Positions 4,702-17,050 are shown, counted from the stretch's first letter. The stretch: DNA of 32,000 nt from Delftia acidovorans NBRC 14950 (GCF_001598795.1 NZ_BCZP01000002.1:360001-392000); one strand, 5' to 3'. Program-made: numbers and translations. The notes: generated by a model from the sequence alone, not told the origin.

Positions 4702-5214
4702 TCAGCCCACGAGATTGCGCCGTCGCCTGGCCGGTGCTGTCACGCCCAGCGCCGCAACGATGCGCCCCACCTGGCCTTCCGTAATCCCATGCTCGGCAGC
4801 CAGTTGCCGGGCCGTTTTGTCCGTGGCGTAGTCTGCAGCGATGCGCTGGTTGCGCAGTGCCTGCAGTGCACGCGCTGCCCTGGGCAGCTGGAAGTGGGGC
4901 AGGCCGCCATACTCACGGGCGAGCTGGAGCAAGGCTGGCACGCCGATGGTGGCCGCATAGGGATGCTCGGCTGTGACCTTGTCCGGTGTGGGAATGTAGA
5001 TGCGCAGTCCACCCCAGCGTTGCACCAGGGCCATCGTGGACTGCAGCCCGATCAGGCGCTCGAAGTCCTGCAGCAGGGGCGGAAGCAGATCGCTGCAAGT
5101 GCCATGATGCGGGTCCGAGGCAGCTGCCACGGGCGTGTGCATGCCGATGGTGGGGGGCAGGGCAGCAGGCCGAAAGCCCTGGAAGACAGGTGCCGGATGG
5201 TGTTCGGAATGCAT
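4702..5214 (-). CDS. Mor-family (phage Mu middle-operon-regulator-like) transcriptional activator
   Basis: The C-terminal half resembles Mu Mor. WGGLRIYIPT parallels Mor GGGQVYIPR, followed by RNQRIAADY and an HTH (ARQLAAEHGITEGQVGRIV). I chose the ATG at 5214 because the longer ORF-track start at 5310 would overlap the operators and the repressor start. Confidence 0.6.
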   Translation of the reverse strand: MHSEHHPAPVFQGFRPAALPPTIGMHTPVAAASDPHHGTCSDLLPPLLQDFERLIGLQSTMALVQRWGGLRIYIPTPDKVTAEHPYAATIGVPALLQLAREYGGLPHFQLPRAARALQALRNQRIAADYATDKTARQLAAEHGITEGQVGRIVAALGVTAPARRRRNLVG

Positions 5215-5231
5215 TTTGGCTGTACGCTCTT

Positions 5232-5286
5232 GGTTCAAAAGGAAACGGTTCAATTTGAACCATATTCTTGGTCCATAACGAACCAA
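5232..5286. promoter_or_regulatory. operator cluster of the divergent switch
   Basis: GGTTCAA occurs at 5232-5238. A perfect 7-1-7 palindrome GGTTCAATTTGAACC lies at 5247-5261. An imperfect 7-5-7 inverted repeat TTGGTCC-ATAAC-GAACCAA lies at 5268-5286. That gives five GGTTC/GAACC-type cores in 55 bp of an AT-richer gap. Confidence 0.55.
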
Positions 5287-5975
5287 TGTCAAGATTCGCC
5301 ATGCCTGCAAAACCTGTGACTGATGCGCTTACATCCAACGTTGATGAGGTACTGGCGCGCATGGCTGAAGCCTTGGGACCCGACTGGATGGCGGGCATGG
5401 AGGTTCAGCCTGAAACGGTGCGGACCTGGCGCAAGCGCGGGGAAGTGCCAGCACGGCAACTGCTGCGGGCCTCGCAGCGAGCGGGCCGGCCGCTGGAGTA
5501 TTTCAACGGCACGGGTGCAGCGAAGCCTGGGGCCCGGCATGGTGGGGCGGCCGAGGACGAGTTCACGCAGATCGAGATGCTCGATGCGCACGTCAGCGCA
5601 GGGCATGGGGCCGTCAACGGCCCCGACGAGGTGATAGGTCGCTTCGCCTTCCGTTCGTCCTGGCTGCAGTCCAAAGGACTGGGCAGGCACAACGCCAAGA
5701 TCGTGCGTGCCCGTGGAAGATCCATGGCGGACCGCATCAACGATGGCGACATCCTGCTGGTCAACACCTCGGTCGATACGCTGACCCAGGATGGTGTCTA
5801 TGTGATCGAGCTGGAGGGTGAGAACTACGTCAAGCTGCTGGAGCGCGACTTCAGCACGGGCGGTGTGCGTATCGTCAGCTACAACCCCGCCTATCCGCCC
5901 CAGGTTCTGGAAGGCGAAGCGGCCAACCGGCTGCGCATCTGCGGCCGGGTCCTCTGGCACGGCGGAGAACTCTAG
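5286..5975 (+). CDS. phage CI-type repressor with a LexA-like S24 autopeptidase domain
   Basis: The N-terminus has a CI-repressor-type motif (VRTWRKRGEVPARQLL). A candidate Ala-Gly cleavage site lies in VSAGHG. The catalytic Ser is in GRSMADR and the Lys in NYVKLLER. The start is uncertain: TTG 5268, ATG 5286 or ATG 5301. Confidence 0.85.
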   Translation: MSRFAMPAKPVTDALTSNVDEVLARMAEALGPDWMAGMEVQPETVRTWRKRGEVPARQLLRASQRAGRPLEYFNGTGAAKPGARHGGAAEDEFTQIEMLDAHVSAGHGAVNGPDEVIGRFAFRSSWLQSKGLGRHNAKIVRARGRSMADRINDGDILLVNTSVDTLTQDGVYVIELEGENYVKLLERDFSTGGVRIVSYNPAYPPQVLEGEAANRLRICGRVLWHGGEL

Positions 5976-6214
5976 CCCCCGGGCCGCGCCGCCCAGCATC
6001 GCTCCAAAGACTTTGCCGCAGGCCTGAGGCCAGCTTGCGCGCTTCCGTCTTCTCCCAGCCTTTCTCGTCCTCCTCTTTCGTGCGTCCGTGCCTGCCCGAG
6101 CGGCAGGACGTTTGCGCTTGCCTGGCCGTTGGGGTGTGTCGGGCCAAGGCACATGTGCCTGGCATCCAGATCCGCTGCGCCTGAGAAGGCGCGCTCCTGT
6201 GGACGCTGAAATCG

Positions 6215-6245
6215 GGCCTGCATATGCAGGCCTTATTCATTTTTG
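6215..6245 (+). terminator. perfect 18-bp palindrome followed by a T-rich tract; terminator-like or a protein-binding site
   Basis: GGCCTGCATATGCAGGCC (6215-6232) is followed by TTATTCATTTTT. Confidence 0.35.
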
Positions 6246-6311: not shown

Positions 6312-6419
6312 ATGTACGCCATCGCACAACTGTTCCTGCTCTTTGCCGCTCATCTGCGGCCCATCGTGGCCGAGGCTGCGGCGAGCGTGGCGGCGGCCTT
6401 TCCGGTGCTGCGCTCATGA
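6312..6419 (+). CDS. 35-aa hydrophobic micro-ORF, first cistron of the tail operon (hypothetical)
   Basis: GGAG at 6302-6305 lies 6 nt upstream of ATG 6312. The product is MYAIAQLFLLFAAHLRPIVAEAAASVAAAFPVLRS. Its TGA (6417-6419) overlaps the next ATG (6416-6418). It falls below the ORF-track length cutoff. Confidence 0.3.
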   Translation: MYAIAQLFLLFAAHLRPIVAEAAASVAAAFPVLRS

Positions 6420-6901
6420 ATGCACTGGCCCAGCATCGCAACGCCATCGTGTCCGTCCTGGCCTCGGTGCCGCAGATCGGCGTTGTGCAGGACCGCGAAC
6501 GCCATGCCGCCAGCGATGCAGAGCTGGCCGCCCTGTTCACGTACACGCCGCCTGCAGCAGGCACGGCCCATGTCCGCGGTTGGTGGCTGCGCAGAAGCAG
6601 CACGGCCGAGCACGGCAGCAGCACGGCCCGCACGGTGAGCGTGCACCAGTGGACGCTGCATGGCTACCTGGCCATCGCCGACACCCAGGCCGGCGAACTG
6701 CTGCTGGACGACCTGGTCGAGCAGTTCCGCGCCCTGGTGCGAGCCGATCCGACCCTGGGCGGCGCGTGCCAGCCCGGTCCCCTGGCAGGCAGCGACGACA
6801 GCACCGATGGCGTGCAGGTCGTGCGAGCCGAGCCTGTGGATTTCGCGGGAGTGCGTTGCCACTCCGTTGTCCTGCAACTCAGAACCTGGAGCTACCTGTG
6901 A
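6416..6901 (+). CDS. putative tail terminator / tail completion protein (gpU-position protein)
   Basis: A 161-aa ORF sits immediately upstream of the tube gene. Its size and position match siphovirus tail terminators. The function is assigned from gene order only, with no motif I can name. I preferred ATG 6416 over the 6224 start. Confidence 0.45.
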   Translation: MNALAQHRNAIVSVLASVPQIGVVQDRERHAASDAELAALFTYTPPAAGTAHVRGWWLRRSSTAEHGSSTARTVSVHQWTLHGYLAIADTQAGELLLDDLVEQFRALVRADPTLGGACQPGPLAGSDDSTDGVQVVRAEPVDFAGVRCHSVVLQLRTWSYL

Positions 6902-7031
6902 CCTGCACACCACCAAACCGGGCCTAGACCGGACACCTCGCACCTTTCCCGCAACCACTGTGGCCCGCGGCGCTGGAGAACGGCGCCCAAGGCCGCGAAA
7001 CCTCTCCTCATCTCTTCAAAGGATTTTCCAA

Positions 7032-7958
7032 ATGGCAGCAAAGATCATGCGCAAGATGGCCCTCCTGGCCCTGGTTGAAACCGTTGTCGGCACGGCCGTC
7101 GTACCGCTGGCGGCCAATGCCATGCTGGTCAGCGACGTGACCCTCACCCCCATCGAGGGCGACGTGGTCGAGCGCAACAACATCCGTCCCTTCTTCGGCT
7201 CCAGCGGCAGCACCCTGGTCACCGAATACCAGAAGGTGGCGTTCTCCGTGGAATTCGCGGGTGTGGCCGCGGCAGGCGAGCGTCCCGGCGTGACCGACCT
7301 GTTGCGTGCGTGTGCCGCCAGCGCCAGCACCGAGACTGGCGTGAAGACGGTCTTCGCTCCCGTGACCGACGGCATCCAGAGCGTGACCATCTACGGCAAC
7401 GTGGACGGCACCCTCTACAAGATGCATGGCGCACGCGGCGAGGTGGAGTTCAGCACCGATGCCAAGGCCATTCCCAAGTGGAAGTTCGAGTTCACGGGCT
7501 CCTTTGTCCCCGCAGTGGATGAGGCCCTGCCGGCTGTGGACTACAGCGACTTCGTCGCTCCCCTGGGCGTCAACAAGACCAACACCCAACTGACCCTCGA
7601 CGGCCTGGCGGTGGCCTGCAGCGCCTTCAGCTTCAAGTGCGGCAACCAGGTGGTCAAGCGCGATCTGATGAACGTGGACACCGTGGAAATCACGGACCGC
7701 AAGTCCACGGGCAGCGTCACCTTCGAGAACACCAGCGTGGCCACCAAGGACTGGATCGGCCTGGCGCGTGCCAGCGCCATCGTGCCCGTCACGCTCAAGC
7801 ACGGCCCGGGCGCCACCAACACCGTCAGTTTCAAGAGCGCGCGCGCCCAGATCGGCAAGCCGACCTACAGCGACAGCGATGGCGTGCAGATGATCACCAT
7901 CCCCCTGTCGTTCATTCCCTCCGACGCGGGCAACGACGAGTGGTCCATCGAGATCTGA
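7032..7958 (+). CDS. major tail (tube) protein
   Basis: A 308-aa beta-rich protein sits directly upstream of the G/GT chaperone pair, with AAGGA upstream of ATG 7032. The ORF-track start at 6660 overlaps the previous gene and gives an Arg/Pro-rich extension, so I rejected it. Confidence 0.7.
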   Translation: MAAKIMRKMALLALVETVVGTAVVPLAANAMLVSDVTLTPIEGDVVERNNIRPFFGSSGSTLVTEYQKVAFSVEFAGVAAAGERPGVTDLLRACAASASTETGVKTVFAPVTDGIQSVTIYGNVDGTLYKMHGARGEVEFSTDAKAIPKWKFEFTGSFVPAVDEALPAVDYSDFVAPLGVNKTNTQLTLDGLAVACSAFSFKCGNQVVKRDLMNVDTVEITDRKSTGSVTFENTSVATKDWIGLARASAIVPVTLKHGPGATNTVSFKSARAQIGKPTYSDSDGVQMITIPLSFIPSDAGNDEWSIEI

Positions 7959-8001: not shown

Positions 8002-8457
8002 ATGGCCGTCAAGATTTCCGGGCTCAAGCCCACCATCTCCGTTCCCGCAACGCTGTACCTGCCCGTCGATGAGGGCAGGTTCGGAGCCCATCACTTTGCC
8101 GTCGTGTTCAAGCGCCTGGGCAAGGCGCGGCGTGACGAGATCAATGAACTCATCGTCGTCGGCAAGCCCGCCACGCAGCCCGATGGCTCGCAGGAGGTAC
8201 GGCGCATGACCATCCCTGAACTGCTCGACGAAGTGGTTGTGGGCTGGGAGGGGATGCTGGGCGACGAAGGAACACCTGTGCCCTACAGCCGCGACGAGCG
8301 CCTGGCGGCCGAGGAGTCCTACCCGGGACTGGAGCAGGCCATGGCCGTGGCCTGGTTCGACGGACTCAACGTGCACCAGCGGGATGCCGCCACAAAAAAC
8401 TCCGTGGCGCTGTCCGGCATCACCTCGGCCTCGACGGCGCAGACCGCTATCTCGTAG
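8002..8457 (+). CDS. tail assembly chaperone (gpG analogue)
   Basis: A 151-aa acidic protein lies between the tube and tape-measure genes. It contains an in-frame X_XXY_YYZ slippery heptamer near its 3' end. Confidence 0.75.
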   Translation: MAVKISGLKPTISVPATLYLPVDEGRFGAHHFAVVFKRLGKARRDEINELIVVGKPATQPDGSQEVRRMTIPELLDEVVVGWEGMLGDEGTPVPYSRDERLAAEESYPGLEQAMAVAWFDGLNVHQRDAATKNSVALSGITSASTAQTAIS

Positions 8458-8777
8458 ACGACGAGCTGCGCGCCCAGTGCGCGCAGATGGGGATCGACCC
8501 CGACCGGATGGTGCCCGGCGATCTGCAACGCCAGCACCCCGAGGACTACGAACTGTGGCCGGAGCATGCGATGGCCTGGAGCGTGTACCTCGGCTGCTCC
8601 ACCCAGTGGCGCAGGACGGCCACGCCCTGGGGCCATTGGCACTGGGACGGGCTGGACTACGCCGGGGCCGAGATCGTGATGCGCCGCTACGCGGTGCCCG
8701 CCGCGCAGCGCGGCGAGGTCTTCGCGCAGTTGCAGGTACTGGAGGCGCAGGCGCTGCGCCAGCTCAACCGGGGCTGA
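8002..8777 (+). CDS. tail assembly chaperone G-T fusion produced by programmed -1 frameshifting
   Basis: A -1 slip at 8394-8400 enters the frame of ORF 8487-8777. I translated that frame by hand from 8400 to 8487 and found no stop. The T part (WPEHAMAWSVYLGCSTQW...) resembles gpT-type segments; I recall the family as DUF1799 but have not verified this. Confidence 0.65.
8394..8400 (+). promoter_or_regulatory. -1 programmed ribosomal frameshift slippery heptamer A_AAA_AAC
   Basis: The zero-frame codons are ACA AAA AAC (T K N), so the heptamer fits X_XXY_YYZ exactly. Confidence 0.65.
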
Positions 8778-8847: not shown

Positions 8848-11800
8848 ATGAGTACAGCGGTCAAAAGCATAGGCATCGCCGAGACGCCCAGCCTGAGCGA
8901 GCTGCGTGCGCAGAATGCCCAGTTCTCCCAGGAGCTCGACAAACTCCACGGCAAGCTGCAGCAGGCGTATGCCGGCATGTCGCAGTTCGCAGGTGCCTCA
9001 ACGGACACGGCACTTGTGTCGGCGCGTGCCAGCGTCGATATCGAGAGCCTGTCTACTTCCATGGGCAAGATTGCCGGCCGCGCCAATGCCCTGCTGGAGG
9101 TGGCGGGTTCGGCGGCCAAGGTGGGAGAGGCCCTCTACACGGCCAGTGCCCAGACAGAGAATCTGCGTACGCGGCTGGACCTTGCCACCGGCGGCAAGGG
9201 CGCGCAGGAACTGGCCTATGTCACGGCCCTGGCCGATCGGCTGGGCCTGCAGCTCAATGCCACCGGCCAGGCCTACGCCGACTTCGCCACCAAGGCGCGT
9301 GGTACGGCGCTGGAAGGTGCGCAGGTGCAGACCATCTTCACGGGGATTGCCTCGGCCAACGCGGCCATGGGCCTTTCCGTGGAGCAGGGCAATGCCTCGT
9401 TGGCAGCCGTACTCGACCTGATGGGCAAGGGGACGATAGGCGCGTCGGACTTCAGCGACAAACTGGGACATATCCCGGATGCGGCGCTGGTCGGCGCTCA
9501 GGCACTGGGTGTGACACAGGAGCGGTTCTCCCAGATGCTGCAGACCGGCGAGGTCGTGACGCAGGACTTTCTACCCCGTTTCTCGCAGGCGCTGCAAAGC
9601 TCCCTGGGAGAGGGGACGGACAAGGCGGCGGACAGGCTGGATGCCGGCACCCAACGCATGGCCAACGCCTGGGACAAGCTCAAGTCCGCCGTGGGAGATT
9701 CCGGCATTAGCCAGATGATCTCCTTTGGCATGAACACAGCGGCCAACGACATGAACGCCTTTTCGGAGTCCATGTCGCGCGCGCGTGACAACGGGTCGGG
9801 CTTCCTGGGCCAGATCAGCAGCGGGCTGGGAAACATCGCCGGGCGCGCGGTGGGCTTGCAATATGTCAGCACGGCCTTCCAGTCGAATGCGGAAAAGGCA
9901 GCCTATCTGGCCAAGGAGCTTCCGCGCGCCAGGGCTGAATTGGAGATGCTGCAGGCCAAGGGGGCAGCGACATCGCGCAATGTGTGGGTGCGCACGGCCC
10001 ATGACGATGCCCAGCGCCTGGTCGAAAAATTGCAGCAGGTGCAGCGCGAATTGATGGCGGCACAGGGTCAGCGCAATGCAGGCGGCGGCCGCGGGTTCAT
10101 CAACCCGCCGCTGGTGGGACAGCCACAGCCGCAGGAGCAAAGCAAGAAAACCGACGCGCCTGCGCAGAAGAAAGAGCCGCCTGCGGTACCCCGCACCGTC
10201 AGCTACGCGCCACCGGCCGTGCCAGCCAGAACGCAGCAGGACAATGAGGAGCTCAAGCGCGATCAGGAACTGCAGAAAAGGCAGCAGGAGGTGGCGCAGC
10301 TCGTCAAGGAACACCAGACCAAGGCCGAACTGGCAGAAAAGAACCTGGACCTCGCCCGGCAGGAGACCCTCGCGATCGGTCTGACTGGCGATGCGTTGGG
10401 ACAGCTGCGGCAGGAGCAGGTCGAAAAGACCATCGCGGAACTGCAAGACAACGCAGCCAAGCAAGAGAGCGTCCGATGCTCGAAGGACGTCGCCGAGGCC
10501 GTGGGCAAAGAGGCCGATGCCACGCGCGAACTCGCCAGGGTCAAAGGCTATAACGACTCGGCACGCATGGTGGCCGAGTACGCGCAAAGCGTGAAGGAGG
10601 CCAACGAGGCGACCCAGTTCGAGCAGTCCCTGGCCGCTATGTCGCAGCGCGATCGGGAGATTGCCCTGGCGCAGTACAGGATCGAGATAGATCTCCAGAA
10701 AAAGCTGCAGGACATCGCGGCCAAGAATCCCTCGGATGCCGCTGCCGCCCAGAAGCTCAAGGAAGATGCCACGGCCGCTGCGAACCAGGCCAAGGCCAAT
10801 GTCGCCGAGCGCACCCGCATGCAGGAAACCCAGAAGTCCGTTGACCAGATGGACGAGATGTTCCGCAAGGGCTTCACGGACATGCTGGCCAACGGTACGG
10901 AAGGCTGGCGCACGTTCACCAAGAACCTGAGCGCGACGTTCAAGGCCACGGTCGCCGACGAGATGTACAAGGCGTTCGCACGGCCATTCCTTGTTCCTGT
11001 GATTGCTCAGTTGCAAGGATTCATCGGCAACCTCTTCGGTAAAACAGGGGCTCCGGGAACTTCTGGACCTAGTGGCTCGACAGATGCGGGCTTGGGGGGG
11101 GGACTGACGGACTGGTCAACCTGGGGTAGCTCAGCTCAAGAGTTCCTCAGTGACTCCGCATTCAAACTCGTCGTGAACGGCTGGGACAAGGCCGGTGGAG
11201 CGATGCTTGACCTGAGCCGGACCGTGGGTAGGTTTGACTCTTGGTTGAAAGACATCCCTGGATTTAAAGGTGGGCTGGGGTCTGCCGCAGGCTATTTGGG
11301 AAGTCTCTATAGCCTGTCTCAGGGGCAATATGGCGCAGCTGTCGGCCAAGCCGTGGGGACGTGGATTCTTCCCGGAATCGGAACGATGGTCGGCAGCTTT
11401 CTGGGTGGAGCTCTGGACAAGGCCTTCGGCTCCCGCGGCCCCAACCACGGCGGCGCCGCCTACAGCACCGCTGGCGTCGGCAACGACAAGGCCGCCGAAC
11501 AGCTGTTCGGCCGTGCGGCCGGAGACTGGTATGACGATCTGACGCAGCGCCACAGCGATGCCGTCGAAAAGCAGCTCAAGACCAGCCTGGACGGCCTGGC
11601 CTCGGTCTATGGGTCCCTCAGCAAATACGCGACGGGTAGCGCGCGCGGCATCGACCTGGTCGGCGGCTTTGCCGTCAACGGCCGGTACAGCGACGAGGAC
11701 GCCTACGGCTACGCCAAGATCATCGACAAGACGACCGGCATGATCCTGGCCGGCTTCGAAAACCGCTCGCTGGGCAACAACCCGGAAGAGGCCTACAAGG

Positions 11801-13839
11801 CCTTCCTGGGCCAGACCGGTTCCCTGCTGGTGTCCGAACTCAAGAAGGCGGACCTGCCCAGCTGGATGCGCACCACGCTGGACTCGCTGGGCGAAGCACC
11901 CAATGTCGAGGCGTTGCAGGCCGCCTTCCAGACCATCGACCTGATCGGCCGCTCCTTCGAGGAACTGGGCAAGAAGATCACGGGCTTTGCCGACCTGACC
12001 GACCTGGCCTTCGAGTCCCTGATCAAGGCTTCGGGCGGCATCGAGGCGCTGAATGCCAACGCGGGCAGCTTCTACCAGAACTTCTACAGCGAGGATGAGC
12101 GTAAGACCATCGCCAAGCGCGAGGTGGGCAGCAAGCTCAAGGACCTGGGCGTGGACATCGACCTGGATGCCGACGACGCCCAGGCCCGGTTCCGCAAGCT
12201 GGTGGAGGACAAGCTCAAGGCAGCCAACTCCGAGGAGGCAAATGCCAAGGTATTGAAGGACGCCATCTCCAAGGTCCAGGGCACGCAAGGCCTCAAGGAC
12301 ATGGCCAAGACTGGCGCTTTCAAGGACTGGGCCAGCACCACCCTGGGAGAAGGTTCGGGCGATATCGGAAAACTCGCGGCCGATCTCGAGAACCTGGCGA
12401 ACACCAGCACGTCGCTGGCCGACTTCACTGCCGGTATGGACAAGCTGATCGGCAATATCGGCGGCACCGGCAAGTCTTCGGCCGAGACCGCTGCCGAGCT
12501 GCTCAAGCTCAACGACACGTTCAAGGCCGTTACCAAGACATCCGAGGATGCTGCGGCGGCTTCGGCCAAACAGGCCGAGGAAGCCAAGCGCAAGCAGGAG
12601 GAGCAGGCGCAAGAGGCGAAGAAGAAGAACGAGGCCGATACGGATGCGGCGTGGAGCCTGCTGCAGCGTTCCGTCGATGCGGAGCGCACCCTGGCTCAGG
12701 CGCGTCTGGATGCCGCCCGCGAGCAGGTCGAGCTTGCACGTGGCGTGGTGGACCTGGCGCGCGGTGCCGCACGTGATCTCTGGGGTGAGGTCGATACGGT
12801 TGCCGCAATGGATGCATCGTTGGCCGGACGGTTCATCCAGGATGCAGTCTCGGCTGTCCGCAATACCGGCTACCTGCCAGAGCAAAAAGCACTTGACGAA
12901 GCCATCACTGCGGCGCGCGATGGCCTTTCGCGCACGGCCTACGCCAGTCGTATCGATGAGGAGCGGGCAAGGCGAGCGCTGGCCGCAGATCTGGAACAAC
13001 TCGGTGAGAAGGGGCAGGAGCAGTTGTCAGTGGCCGAACAGCAATTGGCGGCCGAAGAGACTTCCTTGGCGCGGTTGGATGAACTGATCCTTTCCTCCAA
13101 GCAGCAACTGGACGCTGCTCGTGGCATAGACATCAGCGTGCGCAGCGTCGATGAAGCGGTGCGTGATTTCCAGGCAAAGCTGCTGGCGGAGAAGAGCGGC
13201 GGAAAGTCCGGCCCTGGGGGAGGCGATGTGGCCGTACTGGGGCCTGGGGGGGCGCCTTCGCCTGGAGCGGGCCAGGATGCGCGTTACCGCCGTGCACGCA
13301 CGGATGGTTCGGGTGGCACCTGGTATGAGCCAGTCACTGACAAGGATCGTGTAGCGCATCTGGACAAGTACAACGATGGCTATCACGCCTTCGACGGAAC
13401 CGGGGACGCCAGCGGACTGAACCAATGGATCAAGGACAACAAGCTGACCGCCGCAGATCTGGCGGAGCTTTCCGGTCTTTATGAATCCGATTGGCGCAGG
13501 TGGTTCGAAGGCGCTGGCATTCCGGCCTTCGCGAAAGGTGGCCTGCACGGTGGTGGCTTGCGCATGGTGGGTGAAAGTGGTTGGGAGATCGAAGCCACCG
13601 GACCCGCGCGCCTTTGGAACCAGAGCCAACTGGGACAGGCGCTGATCGGTGGTGCGGATGCTGCTGGCACTCCCTTGCTTTTGGCCATCGAGCGCCTGAT
13701 TCGCGCTATCGAACAGCAGGATCCTGCCTTGCAGGACATCAAACAGCATGTGCGCGATACGGCCGAGGTGCTGTTGCGTGTAACGCGTGGCGGCGTGGCC
13801 ATGCAATCGGCTGGCGGCAGCGCCGTATTGGAGCTCTGA
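8848..13839 (+). CDS. tail tape measure protein (1663 aa)
   Basis: The N-terminal region resembles a tape-measure domain (LELAYVTALADRLGL..., GASDFSDKLGHIP). It has long coiled-coil Ala/Glu/Lys/Gln segments and a Gly-rich hydrophobic patch. The C-terminal motif FAKGGLHGGGLRMVGESGWEIE is typical of tape measures. Confidence 0.9.
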   Translation: MSTAVKSIGIAETPSLSELRAQNAQFSQELDKLHGKLQQAYAGMSQFAGASTDTALVSARASVDIESLSTSMGKIAGRANALLEVAGSAAKVGEALYTASAQTENLRTRLDLATGGKGAQELAYVTALADRLGLQLNATGQAYADFATKARGTALEGAQVQTIFTGIASANAAMGLSVEQGNASLAAVLDLMGKGTIGASDFSDKLGHIPDAALVGAQALGVTQERFSQMLQTGEVVTQDFLPRFSQALQSSLGEGTDKAADRLDAGTQRMANAWDKLKSAVGDSGISQMISFGMNTAANDMNAFSESMSRARDNGSGFLGQISSGLGNIAGRAVGLQYVSTAFQSNAEKAAYLAKELPRARAELEMLQAKGAATSRNVWVRTAHDDAQRLVEKLQQVQRELMAAQGQRNAGGGRGFINPPLVGQPQPQEQSKKTDAPAQKKEPPAVPRTVSYAPPAVPARTQQDNEELKRDQELQKRQQEVAQLVKEHQTKAELAEKNLDLARQETLAIGLTGDALGQLRQEQVEKTIAELQDNAAKQESVRCSKDVAEAVGKEADATRELARVKGYNDSARMVAEYAQSVKEANEATQFEQSLAAMSQRDREIALAQYRIEIDLQKKLQDIAAKNPSDAAAAQKLKEDATAAANQAKANVAERTRMQETQKSVDQMDEMFRKGFTDMLANGTEGWRTFTKNLSATFKATVADEMYKAFARPFLVPVIAQLQGFIGNLFGKTGAPGTSGPSGSTDAGLGGGLTDWSTWGSSAQEFLSDSAFKLVVNGWDKAGGAMLDLSRTVGRFDSWLKDIPGFKGGLGSAAGYLGSLYSLSQGQYGAAVGQAVGTWILPGIGTMVGSFLGGALDKAFGSRGPNHGGAAYSTAGVGNDKAAEQLFGRAAGDWYDDLTQRHSDAVEKQLKTSLDGLASVYGSLSKYATGSARGIDLVGGFAVNGRYSDEDAYGYAKIIDKTTGMILAGFENRSLGNNPEEAYKAFLGQTGSLLVSELKKADLPSWMRTTLDSLGEAPNVEALQAAFQTIDLIGRSFEELGKKITGFADLTDLAFESLIKASGGIEALNANAGSFYQNFYSEDERKTIAKREVGSKLKDLGVDIDLDADDAQARFRKLVEDKLKAANSEEANAKVLKDAISKVQGTQGLKDMAKTGAFKDWASTTLGEGSGDIGKLAADLENLANTSTSLADFTAGMDKLIGNIGGTGKSSAETAAELLKLNDTFKAVTKTSEDAAAASAKQAEEAKRKQEEQAQEAKKKNEADTDAAWSLLQRSVDAERTLAQARLDAAREQVELARGVVDLARGAARDLWGEVDTVAAMDASLAGRFIQDAVSAVRNTGYLPEQKALDEAITAARDGLSRTAYASRIDEERARRALAADLEQLGEKGQEQLSVAEQQLAAEETSLARLDELILSSKQQLDAARGIDISVRSVDEAVRDFQAKLLAEKSGGKSGPGGGDVAVLGPGGAPSPGAGQDARYRRARTDGSGGTWYEPVTDKDRVAHLDKYNDGYHAFDGTGDASGLNQWIKDNKLTAADLAELSGLYESDWRRWFEGAGIPAFAKGGLHGGGLRMVGESGWEIEATGPARLWNQSQLGQALIGGADAAGTPLLLAIERLIRAIEQQDPALQDIKQHVRDTAEVLLRVTRGGVAMQSAGGSAVLEL

Positions 13840-14546
13840 TGCCAACGATCGATCAACTCGAGCAGGCGGCATCGTTGATGCCGGGCGACCTGACACTGCT
13901 GCGCCGGACGGGCCGCACGTATGCCATCGCTGCGGCGGCCATCGCCGGCCCGCAGGGACCGAAGGGTGATCCGGGCGCTGCGGGAGCAACAGGTCCGCGT
14001 GGGGCGACAGGTCCTCAAGGCGAGGCCGGCGTGCAAGGCCTGCAGGGGCAGCAAGGACTTCAGGGACCTGCCGGGCCCAAGGGGGATGTGGGTGCTCAGG
14101 GACTGCAGGGGCCGCAGGGAGCAACAGGACCCCAAGGTCTACCGGGCACGGCAGGTGCCAAGGGAGATGCCGGCGTTCCCGGACCCCAGGGCCCGGTGGC
14201 CATTCCAACCCTGGCGTGGGGTCGCGAATTGGCAAGAGCCGGCTATCTGCGCGAGGCCAATGGTGGCGTGCTTCAGCTCGGGGGGCGCTATGCCATCTGG
14301 ACGGGTGGCGGCGCGATCACCATGCATCTGCCCAAGAAGAGCGAAGTTGCGCTCGGCGATTTCGTCGAGTTCACGAATCTTCACCTCACCTGGCCTGCGT
14401 CCGCGCAGTTCACTGTTGCCCGGCAGGAGTCGGGCACCTACATCCATGGCCACGACAGCCATCTCGTCTGCGACGTGGCCGTGGGTGGCTTTCGGCTGGT
14501 GTGCGTCTGGAAGGACGGCACCAACATCTGGTGGAACATCGTTTGA
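13839..14546 (+). CDS. collagen-like tail fibre / tip protein
   Basis: ATG 13839 overlaps the tape-measure TGA (13837-13839). The protein has a 36-aa N-terminal head, 28 uninterrupted Gly-X-Y triplets and an approximately 115-aa globular C-terminus. Confidence 0.85.
   Translation: MPTIDQLEQAASLMPGDLTLLRRTGRTYAIAAAAIAGPQGPKGDPGAAGATGPRGATGPQGEAGVQGLQGQQGLQGPAGPKGDVGAQGLQGPQGATGPQGLPGTAGAKGDAGVPGPQGPVAIPTLAWGRELARAGYLREANGGVLQLGGRYAIWTGGGAITMHLPKKSEVALGDFVEFTNLHLTWPASAQFTVARQESGTYIHGHDSHLVCDVAVGGFRLVCVWKDGTNIWWNIV
13947..14198 (+). repeat. collagen triple-helix-type Gly-X-Y repeat (28 triplets)
   Basis: GPQGPKGDPGAAGATGPRGATGPQGEAGVQGLQGQQGLQGPAGPKGDVGAQGLQGPQGATGPQGLPGTAGAKGDAGVPGPQGPV, counted by hand. 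Confidence 0.9.
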
Positions 14547-14553
14547 GGAAACC

Positions 14554-15471
14554 ATGATAGTTGTCCCCCCCATGCCCATCACGGCGACTGGCCTGATCGA
14601 CTGCAGTGTTCCGGAGGTGGATGCCTCTGCAGGCGAGAAAGTGTGGTCGCCAACAACCCACTATGAACGTGGCGCGCAGGTTCTGCGGCTGGAGACGCAG
14701 ATGCGCTATGAGAACAGCATTGCGGGAGTCGATGCGACGCCTCCCGAGCAGGACTCCAGGCGCTGGATGCCCCTGCGTCCCAGCAATCGCTGGGCCATGT
14801 TCCGCCATCTCACGAACGATGCCACCGAAGCCCCTGCGACGTTGAGCTTCACCCTGCGCCCAGGCAAGCGCTTCGACACCCTGTTCATGCGGGGGGTACA
14901 GGCCGACAAGGTGGTGATGCAGGTCAAGTCCGCGGGCGTCGTCGTCGCCCAACGCGAGCGCAAGCTGAACGCGCGCGCCACGCGCACTTGGTCAGGCTAT
15001 TTCTTTGGCGAATTTCCGCTGATTCCCACGGTTCTGATATCGGACCTGCCTCCATTCACCGGAGCGGAAATCGTGGTCACGCTGGTGCGTGCAGGTGGCC
15101 GCCCGGTACGTGTGGAGCATGCGGCACTAGGCATGAAGAGCTGGATTGGCGATGCGGAATGGGCGCCGCGCAATGACGCGCTGAATTTCTCGGTGGTCGA
15201 TCGCGACAAGTACGGCGGCATCAAGTTGCAGCCTGTGCGTAGCGTTCCCACGCTCTCGGTCAAGGTCCGCATCCCCAAGGACAACGTCGATACCGCACTG
15301 CGCCTGCGCAGGGAACTGGATGCGGCCCCGGCACTGTGGGCTGCACTGGATGACGACACCACCGATGGATATGCCGAAGCCGCGTCGATCTTCGGCCCTT
15401 ACCGGCGTTTTCCCATCGACCTCAACAACGCGAAAGACTCGTACAGCCAGATTGATTTGGAGTCCATGTAA
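14554..15471 (+). CDS. distal tail / baseplate-position protein of unknown family
   Basis: GAGGAA lies upstream of ATG 14554, and the ORF encodes 305 aa. The N-terminal motif is WSPTTHYERGAQV...Y...PPEQDSRRWMPLRPSNRWAMF. It is coding-like and translationally coupled to the next ORF. The function is inferred from position only. Confidence 0.55.
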   Translation: MIVVPPMPITATGLIDCSVPEVDASAGEKVWSPTTHYERGAQVLRLETQMRYENSIAGVDATPPEQDSRRWMPLRPSNRWAMFRHLTNDATEAPATLSFTLRPGKRFDTLFMRGVQADKVVMQVKSAGVVVAQRERKLNARATRTWSGYFFGEFPLIPTVLISDLPPFTGAEIVVTLVRAGGRPVRVEHAALGMKSWIGDAEWAPRNDALNFSVVDRDKYGGIKLQPVRSVPTLSVKVRIPKDNVDTALRLRRELDAAPALWAALDDDTTDGYAEAASIFGPYRRFPIDLNNAKDSYSQIDLESM

Positions 15472-16151
15472 TGCCTATTGTCAAACCACCTCTGATTGCA
15501 CAACTTCCCGTCGCTCCCTATGTCGGAGATCCCGATTTCGACGCGCATGCCGATGCCCTGCTGGGGCAGCTCGAATCGCATCGCCAGCAAATCAACGCCA
15601 CGAACGATGCGACCTACACCAACGCCTTGCATGTGGAGGAGCGAGCCGGATCAGCCGAGGGCGCTGCGCGCGGTGCCTCGCAGTCCGAGGCCGCCGCCGC
15701 GCAAAGCGCCATAGCTGCTGCGGCAGCCGCTGGTGCCGTGAAATGGACTGCGGGTACAGCCTATGCGGAGGGCGCCGTGGTCTGGAGTCCGGCCAATGGC
15801 CTCAACTACCGCCGCAAGCTTGCCGGCAGCGGTGGCAATGACCCCAGCTCCGACGCCGCCAACTGGTGGGTGATGGGGGCGCCCATGTCGGCCCCCATCC
15901 AACGCATCAGCTCCGATACGCTGGCGCAGACACGCATGCATTACGTGATCGAAGCGGCACTCACGCTCACTTTGCCGGCAGCGCCGGCACTGAGCGATGT
16001 GGTCCAGATCACGGATCTGTCCGATTCGATGGCCGTGGCCATCCATCCCAACGGCGCCCTCATTCGCGGAGCGAGCGGCGTGATGACTCTCGATGTTCTG
16101 CGGGCAGCCGGCTCGCTTGTGTATTCCGGCTCAGCGAAAGGATGGGTGTAA
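15471..16151 (+). CDS. tail fibre-like protein
   Basis: ATG 15471 overlaps the preceding TAA (TAATG). It has an Ala-rich helical stretch (EAAAAQSAIAAAAAAG) and a W-x-x-G-T-x-Y-x-x-G motif. Its C-terminal domain is similar to that of the collagen-like protein. Confidence 0.55.
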   Translation: MPIVKPPLIAQLPVAPYVGDPDFDAHADALLGQLESHRQQINATNDATYTNALHVEERAGSAEGAARGASQSEAAAAQSAIAAAAAAGAVKWTAGTAYAEGAVVWSPANGLNYRRKLAGSGGNDPSSDAANWWVMGAPMSAPIQRISSDTLAQTRMHYVIEAALTLTLPAAPALSDVVQITDLSDSMAVAIHPNGALIRGASGVMTLDVLRAAGSLVYSGSAKGWV

Positions 16152-16154
16152 GAA

Positions 16155-16457
16155 ATGCCGAATTTTTCTCAGCTTTTTGGGGGTGGGAGTGTGGTCAAAG
16201 GTGTTCAGCGAGGGGTTACAGAATCGCAGTCTGGTGCTTATGCAAATTACACAATAAAGGTGCCTATTTCTGCTGTTAATCCAGCAAAGACATTAGTAAA
16301 TATATTGACTCAGTACAGCAGTGGTGCAGAGGGATGGGAAACAACAATTTCGGCACGGCTTCTAAATGCGACAACCTTGGAGATATACGCTATACGGTCG
16401 AGTCCAGGTGGCATGTTTGGTCCCGCTATCTCGTGGGAGGTTATCGAGTTTGGTTAA
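16155..16457 (+). CDS. hypothetical 100-aa protein, last gene of the tail operon, on a low-GC cassette
   Basis: The ATG lies 3 nt after the previous stop. The product is MPNFSQLFGGGSVVKGVQRG...ISWEVIEFG. The segment is markedly AT-richer than the rest of the operon. Confidence 0.5.
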   Translation: MPNFSQLFGGGSVVKGVQRGVTESQSGAYANYTIKVPISAVNPAKTLVNILTQYSSGAEGWETTISARLLNATTLEIYAIRSSPGGMFGPAISWEVIEFG

Positions 16458-16555: not shown

Positions 16556-16740
16556 CATTCGTCAGGCATATCATGAGATTGAACGGTATAGCGTTTGGAT
16601 GTTATCGGGTTCGGGGTCTTTGAGACTGCACCGAAGAACCCGAGATCATCATCACCAGCTTCACAGTAGATCGTGAGGCTTTGTGAATACACCCACTTCA
16701 CCGATTCGACGGTGCCTGTGGGTGCCACGCTGGTCCTATC

Positions 16741-16809
16741 TGCCGAACTGCCGAACTGCCGAACTGCCGAACTGCCGAACTGCCGAACTGCCGAACTGCC
16801 GAACTGCCG
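16741..16809. repeat. perfect tandem octanucleotide repeat (TGCCGAAC) x 8 plus a partial copy
   Basis: Counted by hand: eight complete TGCCGAAC units span 16741-16804, followed by TGCCG. Confidence 0.95.
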
Positions 16810-17010: not shown

Positions 17011-17026
17011 GGCGTGACATACAACC

Positions 17027-17050
17027 AAGCCGGCTCCTGCCGGCTTTTTT
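17027..17050 (+). terminator. rho-independent terminator
   Basis: Stem AAGCCGGC (17027-17034), loop TCCT, stem GCCGGCTT (17039-17046), with the T-run extending to 17050. Confidence 0.75.

Follow-up and report, generated by a model that had tools for sequence, protein, structure and literature searches.

How a siphophage-type tail could be completed by only four small proteins is the question raised by a tail gene cluster of Delftia acidovorans NBRC 14950. According to reviews, a Dit-Tal or M-L-K-I-J core is near-universal in long non-contractile tails. In the window analyzed here, a 32,000-nt stretch whose first letter is position 1 for all coordinates below, the tape measure gene is followed by four tightly coupled genes encoding proteins of 235, 305, 226, and 100 aa (g1 to g4), just as the first-pass annotation had listed them. 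That annotation offered two readings, a novel compact tip or a structure that cannot be completed because its hub genes are lost, and only the first has held. The four-gene set is a real, widespread, and uncharacterized type of phage tail tip that Delftia retains in a tail-only cluster without head genes, and it is not the product of hub-gene loss.

The tail-only cluster occupies 12 kb of the window (about 4.7-17.05 kb) and is flanked by host genes on both sides; Pfam and PHROGs searches identified no capsid, portal, terminase, or lysis genes anywhere in the window. The cluster begins with two divergent regulatory genes. The first, on the minus strand (4702..5310), encodes a small, weakly Mor-like regulator (weak Pfam Mor match, with a C-terminal HTH visible in the translation), has a sigma-70-like site at 5292-5264 on the same strand, and is conserved in loci L015 (94%) and L016 (74%). 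The second, on the plus strand like all genes described below, encodes a CI/PrtR-like S24-peptidase repressor (5361..5975; Pfam Peptidase_S24, E 9e-20; PHROG 4 transcriptional repressor, E 2e-35), and its placement upstream of the tail genes resembles the PrtR logic of F-pyocins. An assignment of this gene as the host LexA was rejected, as no LexA equivalog was matched in NCBIfam. A terminator-like hairpin (6214..6243, plus strand) lies between the repressor gene and the tail operon, which is headed by two ORFs of unknown function encoding 35 and 161 aa (6312..6901; gene calls in L003). These ORFs occupy the position of the tail terminator or completion gene of a related prophage, L009; the 161-aa ORF is 88-97% conserved in L015 and L016, and it has neither a family match nor similarity to the L009 terminator. 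They are followed by a 308-aa tail tube protein of the RcapMu type (7032..7958; Pfam Phage_tube_2), a tail assembly chaperone pair (8002..8777; Pfam DUF1799, E 2e-26; PHROG 680 and 569), and a 1663-aa tape measure protein (8848..13839; Pfam TMP_3, E 2e-19; PHROG 25966, E 1e-81) whose C-terminal ~460 residues have no Pfam assignment. Within the chaperone pair, the frame of the T-like DUF1799 gene (8487-8777) is open from 8220, in the -1 frame, and overlaps the G-like gene (8002-8457).

The first tip gene, g1 (13839..14546), begins on the tape measure stop codon, its ATG sharing an A with the TGA (cTGATGcc). Its product matches Pfam Collagen (E 1.6e-15) and PHROG tail-fibre families (E 1e-22), and consists of a 36-aa N-terminus, exactly the 28 uninterrupted G-X-Y triplets counted previously (residues 37-120), and a 115-aa C-terminal globular domain with no PDB or Pfam match. 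A long G-X-Y run with non-collagen flanks, encoded within a tail operon, marks g1 as a collagen-like phage tail fibre. Homologues occupy the same position in L009 (54%), L012 (43%), and L017, and are absent from phages DMCA and CGphi29 and from the Vibrio phages. The collagen-like protein directly after the tape measure, which the first-pass annotation made part of its novel architecture, is an insertion of a sub-lineage, and g2 is the core.

The g2 gene (14554..15471) encodes a 305-aa protein that matches phrog_6278 over its full length (residues 1-303 against positions 1-303 of 306; E 1.9e-42). Its start was placed at 14554 because the N-terminus MIVVPP is conserved; a longer ORF in the same frame (13921-15471, 516 aa) was considered as a gene and rejected as merely an upstream extension. 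An exhaustive search returned 5,402 family representatives (clusters at 50% identity), a distribution at odds with an architecture new to this locus. Family members are either standalone proteins, as in the cultured phages of Caulobacter (DMCA), Salicola (CGphi29), Vibrio, Synechococcus, and Limnohabitans, or N-terminal modules of 700-2800-aa fibre proteins. Homologues lie directly after the tape measure in DMCA, CGphi29, Vibrio 1.119.O, Limnohabitans DC31, L021, L022, and L024; in the window, g1 stands between the two. In L021, L022, and L024 the homologue forms the extreme N-terminus of proteins of 1317-1925 aa. No large tail gene separates this fusion from the lysis genes in L021 (a DUF4376 gene and two small ORFs, then a GH108 endolysin) or in L024 (five small ORFs of 64-149 aa, then a muramidase), and L022 has a 605-aa gene of unknown function further downstream.

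The AlphaFold2 model of g2 (pLDDT 81.7) predicts a CBM5/12-like knob, a jelly-roll, and a C-terminal beta/alpha domain, the last with modest confidence (pLDDT 57-80). Foldseek matched this model to only CBM32, F5-8C, and SUN jelly-rolls in the PDB, and to homologues labelled 'Tail protein' in BFVD.

The g3 gene (15471..16151) encodes a 226-aa protein that, judging from its model (pLDDT 87.6), is a coiled-coil adaptor with a predicted domain like that of T4 gp10 and the CBA120 TSP4 N-terminus. The model comprises a conserved N-terminal anchor, a long helix (residues 23-87), a CBM5/12-like knob (88-136), and a C-terminal domain whose resemblance to T4 gp10 and TSP4-N was also detected by a profile search against the PDB (E 1.4e-7). 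Foldseek matched 7RFV, 7REJ, and 7RFO at E 1e-6, along with T4 gp10 and KP1 baseplate chains. The resemblance extends over 146-154 aligned columns to the N-terminal region of TSP4 (residues about 96-173) or to gp10. TSP4 and gp10 are components of myovirus baseplates with large tailspike or fibre bodies attached, whereas g3 has 226 aa, a coiled coil, and a CBM5/12-like knob, and belongs to a siphovirus-type tail. The N-terminal 60-90 aa of g3 recur in the gene after g2 in DC31, DMCA, CGphi29, and Xenophilus, where the C-termini differ.

The first-pass annotation ended the module at 16457, with g4, but the remains of a fifth tip gene follow (g5; 16482 to approximately 17020; tblastn and three-frame comparison with L015 e173 and L009 e175), and the operon probably ends at a hairpin with a T-run (AGCCGGC-TCCT-GCCGGCT; 17026..17050, plus strand). 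Encoded by 16155..16457, g4 (100 aa) has homologues in L009, L012, and L017; its middle is variable, its two ends (MPNFSQLFGGG and WEVIEF) are conserved. Its gene has a GC content of 0.46 and is 50% identical to the type-strain allele, although the DNA on either side is 95-97% identical; L016 has in its place a gene for a 274-aa Gly-rich protein with the same N-terminus. The whole g4-g5 region is AT-rich and is replaced between strains that are otherwise 97% identical, and g4 is the first half of this exchangeable cassette. Where intact, g5 encodes 173-179 aa. The copy in NBRC 14950 is frameshifted: its reading frame changes at least four times, and it contains an 8-bp tandem repeat. The decayed element of this strain is a fifth small gene, not a hub.

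In agreement with the first-pass annotation, none of the four proteins matched Dit/Tal or lambda tip families in Pfam, PHROGs, or NCBIfam. Dit families (Sipho_tail, Phage_min_tail, and similar) were not matched by g1-g4 in Pfam, the PHROGs tail categories, or NCBIfam; the Tal/hub domains HDI-HDIV were absent from the results of all libraries and from Foldseek searches with g2 (PDB, BFVD) and g3 (PDB); and the lambda-type set of an NlpC/P60 gpK, an Fe-S gpL, and a gpJ of >1000 aa with FNIII domains is absent from the window. Structure prediction and Foldseek, which the annotation had proposed as a check, found no Dit, Tal, gpJ, gpM, or gpL fold: for g2 none occurs among the 50 best PDB or BFVD matches, and for g3 neither these nor a hub protein was matched in the PDB. 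Profile searches with g2, fragments included, produced no Dit, Tal, or hub match at E<=5, and PDB sequence and profile searches with g2, g3, g4, and the C-terminal domain of g1 produced no Dit, Tal, or lambda tip match. Because no relationship to Dit, Tal, gpM, gpL, gpK, gpI, or gpJ was found, the compact layout represents a genuine non-canonical tip.

Comparison with relatives speaks against lost hub genes. A complete Mu-like prophage (L009/L011) contains the same compact set of tip genes in the same order (36-58% identity) plus the fifth gene, and cultured phages place a g2 homologue right after the tape measure without a large J gene. The L009-type prophage encodes a terminator, gp36, and a Mu gpT capsid, extends no further than the fifth tip gene, and shares gene order and 36-61% identity with the window across the tail genes. 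Other loci carry homologues of g1-g4 in matching order, and dN/dS values against a second species are 0.07-0.13 for g2, g3, and the C-terminal part of g1, indicating that g1-g4 are real genes rather than chance ORFs.

The same type of tube also occurs in more distant relatives. The window tube is 61% identical to that of L009 and 36% identical to the 308-aa Phage_tube_2 proteins RcapMu48 and RcWaterboi gp46, from transposable siphophages whose Mu-like genomes carry the tail genes at the right end. RcapMu also shares the DUF1799 chaperone pair followed by the tape measure, and a -1 frameshift is annotated there at the same place. Unlike the window, its tape measure is followed by two small tail genes with no Pfam match (140 and 175 aa, the latter annotated as a minor tail protein), a gpK-like NlpC/P60 gene, a 1142-aa central fibre J (FNIII-A_GpJ, E 1e-19), and further tail proteins. 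The RcapMu tip and g1-g5 are different, non-homologous modules. A large J-like gene does exist in relatives, but the suggestion that it was deleted here fails: since RcapMu carries its J-type fibre at the tip position, the history is one of module swapping.

The phrog_6278 proteins of cultured phages (DMCA gp17, CGphi29 gp36, Synechococcus Ssp-JY42, Vibrio 1.119.O gp37, and Limnohabitans DC31) are among the closest known parallels, with full-length homology to g2 at 25-35% identity, BFVD TM values of 0.67-0.85, and a next gene that shares the g3 N-terminal anchor. They differ from the window in having no collagen gene before g2 and in their downstream receptor-binding genes; all are annotated as hypothetical, with no PDB match. 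The F-type pyocin of P. aeruginosa offers another comparison: in the chromosome, genes for the tube, the G/T chaperones, the tape measure, and the tip are grouped without head genes, as in the Delftia cluster, a tailocin candidate. The F-pyocin tip is of the lambda type, with a DTP hexamer, a BHP1/BHP2 hub, TAP, and a central fibre (PMC13455828), and Pfam, PHROGs, and Foldseek detected no counterpart of these components in the window. Like an F-type tailocin, the Delftia cluster is tail-only, has no capsid or packaging genes, occupies the same place in the chromosome of different strains and species, and is under purifying selection in one species pair, though with lesions in two lineages. Neither its own lysis cassette nor a recognizable tail terminator was found in the cluster, features that are not strictly defining because the terminator and Alp lysis operon of the F-pyocin lie outside its main cluster (PMC13455828).

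We consider it probable that the four ORFs and the decayed fifth constitute the normal distal-tip and adsorption module of a Mu-like siphophage lineage with an RcapMu-type tube, in which a tip built around g2 replaces Dit/Tal or M-L-K-I-J, and that the cluster is a domesticated flexible tail. In such a tip, g2 would be the tube-proximal element, binding the last tube ring and the tape measure C-terminus and filling the role played elsewhere by Dit and the hub or by the J N-terminus. By its conserved anchor g3 would dock on g2, projecting a coiled coil with a sugar-binding CBM5/12-like knob and a gp10/TSP4-N-like branching domain, which might hold the small, variable g4 and possibly also the collagen-like fibre g1; g4 and g5 would form an exchangeable specificity cassette. 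We infer these contacts among the tip proteins, as well as killing or any other function of the particle. The exclusive resemblance of the g2 model to carbohydrate-binding jelly-rolls counts against this scheme, and tube closure by g2 is a proposal.

A somewhat unlikely alternative is that g2, by itself or in combination with g4, represents a Dit or Tal that has diverged strongly (an 'evolved Dit') and whose belt or hub domain is masked by CBM and jelly-roll insertions, leaving a tip canonical in architecture and unrecognizable in sequence. In most relatives g2 does hold the Dit position directly after the tape measure; its residues 200-303 are predicted to form four strands, a 14-residue helix, and four strands, with the low pLDDT expected of a ring-forming domain; and a weak belt-domain match could be hidden, because Foldseek ranks whole-model matches by their best domain. 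Against this stand the structural and profile searches described above, and the long relatives, which have a single g2-led polypeptide and no separate Dit or hub gene, unlike the two-gene pattern of Dit plus Tal. The third possibility, that the hub acts in trans from another prophage or is supplied by the long tape measure C-terminal part, with the four proteins serving as fibres only, seems very improbable. The fibre- or adaptor-like nature of all four (collagen, coiled coil, CBM-like knobs, gp10-like domain) and the length of the tape measure with its unassigned C-terminus are consistent with it, but cultured 40-54 kb phages of the same layout have no Dit/Tal annotation near their tail genes, the g2-fusion protein is the sole large tail gene between tape measure and lysis genes in L021 and L024, and g2 shows the strongest conservation within the module (dN/dS 0.07), unlike a peripheral fibre.

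Doubtful, too, is a broad form of the first-pass annotation's second reading, in which the cluster is a decaying prophage remnant without present function, its tip minimal since the element is incomplete. Head, lysis, and terminator genes are absent, g5 is a multi-frameshift pseudogene here, a MAG carries a 703-bp deletion that fuses the tube to the end of G, and close g2 homologues were detected in only 4 GTDB species representatives. Nevertheless, a complete prophage has the same set of tip genes, which means that no hub has been lost. In the one species pair that provides the selection signal, element genes have dS values of 0.24-0.85, similar to those of the flanking host genes (0.29-0.47), and dN/dS of 0.07-0.28 (0.19 for the 161-aa ORF), and the ORFs, including that of the 5-kb tape measure, stay open at a dS of about 0.5. 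Many Delftia genomes carry the g2 cluster; the head-less layout recurs, at an identical chromosomal position, in the D. tsuruhatensis type strain (NBRC 16741), whose copy is fully intact with g5 included, and in a second species, and the regulators are retained. Vertical inheritance in Delftia under purifying selection thus favors the domesticated flexible tail, an F-type tailocin candidate. The lack of a recognizable terminator or lysis cassette, together with inactivating lesions in two of three lineages, weighs against that assignment.

A broader reading, which we regard as rather unlikely, is that tips of the g2 type close and arm siphophage tails independently of Dit and Tal, with one module, either standing alone or joined to the central fibre, doing the work of Dit plus hub, and that Delftia has domesticated a Mu-like tail bearing such a tip as a new class of flexible tailocin under an S24 repressor and a Mor-like activator. 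Several thousand protein clusters, some of them from cultured phages (Caulobacter, Vibrio, Synechococcus, Salicola, and Limnohabitans), place a different, structurally unsolved protein directly after the tape measure, and in some cases no further large tail gene precedes the lysis genes. Solving a single g2-type tip would reveal whether the Dit/hub fold is indeed universal or is one of two solutions. The cluster in Delftia, which is compact, possibly SOS-controlled, and furnished with its exchangeable cassette of g4 and g5, is a candidate flexible tailocin of a new, easily engineered kind. Within that cassette, the tandem repeat in the g5 remains is perfect (CTGCCGAA x 8.8; 16740..16809), and the remains are identical in independent assemblies up to the repeat.

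The four small ORFs that follow the tape measure (g1 to g4) are as the first-pass annotation described them: downstream of a 1663-aa tape measure (8848-13839; TMP_3, E 2e-19; PHROG 25966, E 1e-81) come proteins of 235 aa (g1, 13839-14546, collagen-like), 305 aa (g2, 14554-15471, phrog_6278), 226 aa (g3, 15471-16151), and 100 aa (g4, 16155-16457), separated by 1-base overlaps or 3-7-base gaps. The g1 start shares one base with the tape-measure stop codon, and its run of uninterrupted G-X-Y triplets counts exactly 28. Because all four ORFs have syntenic homologues at other loci, they are real genes. Beyond g4 lie the remains of a fifth tip gene, g5 (16482 to about 17020), broken up by at least four changes of reading frame, and a hairpin with a T-run 3' of the tip genes (17026-17050). 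The annotation had interpreted the set either as a novel compact tip or as one that had lost its hub genes (Dit/Tal or M-L-K-I-J), and this interpretation is partly supported: the tip is neither an oddity unique to the locus nor a gene-loss artefact, and represents an uncharacterised but widespread type, here within a candidate flexible tailocin.

Hub loss is argued against by a complete Mu-like prophage recovered from metagenomes (L009/L011), which carries the same compact tip order. In order, this prophage encodes Mu gpT capsid, gp36, a tail terminator, a 315-aa tube, chaperones, and a 1758-aa tape measure, which is followed by proteins of 237, 303, 218, 96, and 175 aa, a Dam methylase, and then host genes. 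The L009 and window proteins are 61% identical for the tube, 54% for g1, 58% for g2, 57% for g3, and 36% for g4, and the fifth gene is the single difference between the two tip sets. Since the gene order is also the same in a further lineage (L012) and in Paenacidovorax caeni (L017), comparison of the loci points to the compact tip as the native state of this phage lineage. It is very probable that the tip set is complete by design and not through hub loss.

The first-pass annotation also held that its proposal would be refuted if syntenic relatives carried a large J-like gene at this position that is deleted here, a criterion that more distant relatives formally touch. The closest cultured relatives of the tube, RcapMu and RcWaterboi (36% identity), likewise have a 308-aa Phage_tube_2 tube and a DUF1799 chaperone, but downstream of their tape measure lie genes for two small tail proteins (140 and 175 aa, without a Pfam match), an NlpC/P60 (gpK-like) protein, and a J protein of 1142 aa with a GpJ FNIII-A domain. 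Because tube and chaperone are alike and the tip is different, the same tail chassis occurs with either tip. Since the compact tip is found in the complete relative that stands nearer, the difference is a module swap rather than a deletion in Delftia. A literature search on Delftia tailocins, Dit-less phages, and ValSw3-3 or CGphi29 proteomics found nothing relevant, and the tip described in the Avs-1 paper is lambda-like and unrelated.

The tip is non-canonical, as had been proposed, but its novelty does not extend to being confined to this locus, because the g2 family is widespread. An exhaustive profile search recovered 5,402 representatives at E<=1e-3; a genome scan with an alignment of nine closer g2 sequences returned only four loci. 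Over its whole length g2 matches phrog_6278, a PHROG of unknown function (E 2e-42). Homologues immediately follow the tape-measure gene in Caulobacter phage DMCA, Salicola phage CGphi29, Vibrio phage 1.119.O, and Limnohabitans phage DC31, and are also present in Synechococcus phages Ssp-JY42 and Yong-M4-211 and further Vibrio phages. Among the best 147 of the 5,402 representatives, 53 stand alone at about 300 aa and 88 have lengths of 700-2800 aa; in 87 of these 88 long forms the g2 module begins within the first 20 residues. Within the module g2 is also the most conserved protein, with a dN/dS of 0.07 against the metagenome-assembled genome (MAG) Fux382_bin36. Because of its position, its conservation, and its N-terminal placement in fibre proteins, we infer that g2 would be the tube-proximal core of the tip, a functional analogue of Dit plus hub or of the J N-terminus.

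In the AlphaFold2 model of g2 (pLDDT 81.7), a small CBM5/12-like knob is accompanied by a jelly-roll and by a C-terminal beta/alpha domain predicted with less confidence. Foldseek retrieved only carbohydrate-binding jelly-rolls from the PDB (CBM32, F5/8C, SUN, IFT25; E about 1e-3), and from BFVD the protein's own homologues (TM up to 0.85, one named 'Tail protein') together with unnamed viral proteins of about 270 aa; a profile search against the PDB gave weak chitin-binding-domain matches only. Likeness to Dit, Tal, gpM, gpL, or gpJ, the comparison proposed in the first-pass annotation, was absent from the matches listed for both the PDB and BFVD. A very diverged tube-like domain may nevertheless be hidden in the C-terminal part of g2.

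The three long forms placed in their genomic context, all in prophages, lie directly after the tape measure. L021 (8001-12921) encodes a 1453-aa g2-fusion protein with a DUF4376 gene, two small ORFs, and lysis genes behind it; L024 (2429-8206) a 1925-aa fusion, then five small ORFs and a muramidase; and L022 (8001-11954) a 1317-aa fusion, then small ORFs and, at a greater distance, a 605-aa gene of unknown function. With no other large tail gene between the fusion protein and the lysis genes in L021 and L024, these three tips are even more minimal than that of the window. When four long forms were scanned against PHROGs, one (P0065) matched tail-fibre and host-specificity families and another (P0094) the tail-protein family phrog_38396, its tblastn match in Pectobacterium phage My1 being annotated 'putative tail protein pb4'. 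Beyond the g2 module, the remaining two matched only families of unknown function or virion-structural families.

Downstream of g2, g3 shows the familiar combination of a conserved anchor and a variable distal part. Its first 60-90 residues are found again at the opening of the post-g2 gene in DC31, DMCA, CGphi29, and a Xenophilus prophage, beyond which these genes differ. The model of g3 (AlphaFold2, pLDDT 87.6) contains a helix of 65 residues and a CBM5/12-like knob, and its C-terminal domain matches T4 gp10 and KP1 baseplate chains as well as the anchor/branching region at the N-terminus of CBA120 tailspike 4 (Foldseek E 1e-6; profile E 1.4e-7). The knob is common to g2 (residues 28-75; 14635-14780) and g3 (residues 88-136; 15732-15878), whose mutual sequence similarity is detectable in the motif W..Y..G..V......Y......P......W. 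It is duplicated in some long g2-fusion proteins. Derivation of g3 as a split-off piece of such proteins was considered, but simple gene fission is unsupported because the knob is all that they share. The collagen-like g1 is present only in a Comamonadaceae-associated sub-lineage and absent where g2 directly follows the tape measure, and is therefore an accessory fibre rather than the core. Relaxed Pfam searches (E<=5) with g2 fragments, the g1 C-terminal domain, g4, g5, the tape-measure C-terminus, and a 161-aa ORF upstream of the tube returned nothing useful, and PDB sequence searches gave no match for the tube, the g1 C-terminal domain, or g4.

The window is high-GC chromosomal DNA in which the element lies between argB, a two-component pair, and an SlmA-like TetR gene upstream, all host genes, and a TetR gene with fatty-acid oxidation genes beyond the 17026-17050 hairpin. 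Because no capsid, portal, terminase, or lysis gene occurs within the window, the element reads as a tail-only cluster of 12 kb. On the minus strand, a weakly Mor-like HTH gene (4702-5310) diverges from an S24-peptidase repressor gene (5361-5975) across a gap of about 50 bp. With a terminator-like hairpin (6214-6243) between the repressor gene and the tail operon, the arrangement recalls PrtR/PrtN control of pyocins. Two ORFs of 35 and 161 aa without assigned function precede the 308-aa tube gene (7032-7958, Phage_tube_2), whose start is backed by homologues and gene callers; read from an ATG at 6660, the tube frame stays open for 432 codons (6660-7958) and overlaps the 161-aa ORF. A G/T chaperone pair (DUF1799; the T frame overlaps in -1) lies between tube and tape measure. 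An alternative reading of the S24 gene and the 161-aa ORF as a host lexA-sulA pair beside a psrA-like TetR gene was rejected because the former has no LexA equivalog match in NCBIfam and the latter no match to SulA or any other family. Comparison of the 161-aa ORF, a candidate tail terminator, with the terminator of L009 and with protein families revealed no resemblance.

A head-less cluster with this layout, flanked by the same host genes, is also found in the D. tsuruhatensis type strain (L015), where it is fully intact, and in the MAG, which represents a second species (L016). Against the MAG, element genes have dS of 0.24-0.85 and dN/dS of 0.07-0.28, compared with 0.29-0.47 and 0.04-0.07 for flanking host genes, and in neither genome is the 5-kb tape-measure ORF interrupted. 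The shared site, these values, and the open ORF argue for vertical inheritance and purifying selection after head-gene loss, which, with the repressor/activator pair, resembles tailocin domestication. As to function as a tailocin today, we lean slightly against it. No lysis or terminator gene is recognisable in the cluster; F-pyocins, too, have their terminator and a lysis operon encoded elsewhere than in the cluster (PMC13455828). Also against it, g5 is dead in the window strain, and in the MAG (L016 3111-3830) a 703-bp deletion joins residue 228 of the tube in frame to the final 11 codons of G. Every other element ORF of the MAG is intact, and the deletion may be either recent or an error of assembly.

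Window and type-strain DNA are 95-97% identical up to 16310 and again from 16966, whereas the intervening stretch (L015 11742-12379) is unalignable, the cassette having been replaced between strains. Its GC is about 0.45-0.48 against about 0.65 in the rest of the element. The AT-rich g4 (GC 0.46) has conserved termini and a variable middle and is only 50% identical to its type-strain counterpart; in L016 it is replaced by a 274-aa glycine-rich protein that shares the N-terminal MPNFSQLFGGGG with g4. Divergence between near-identical flanks and the replacement in L016 suggest that g4-g5 behaves as an exchangeable specificity cassette. In the type strain g5 is intact (173-179 aa), whereas the dead window copy contains a perfect 8-bp tandem repeat, CTGCCGAA x 8.8 (16740-16809), within which two independent short-read assemblies (L004, L007) both end exactly. 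Phase variation was considered, since loss of one CTGCCGAA unit rejoins two frames, yet at least three other breaks would remain, and g5 in the window strain is thus a pseudogene rather than a switch. A second unalignable stretch lies within the tape measure (11038-11422, residues about 731-842), which is otherwise 95-97% identical to that of the type strain and measures 1663 aa in the window and 1647 aa in the type strain.
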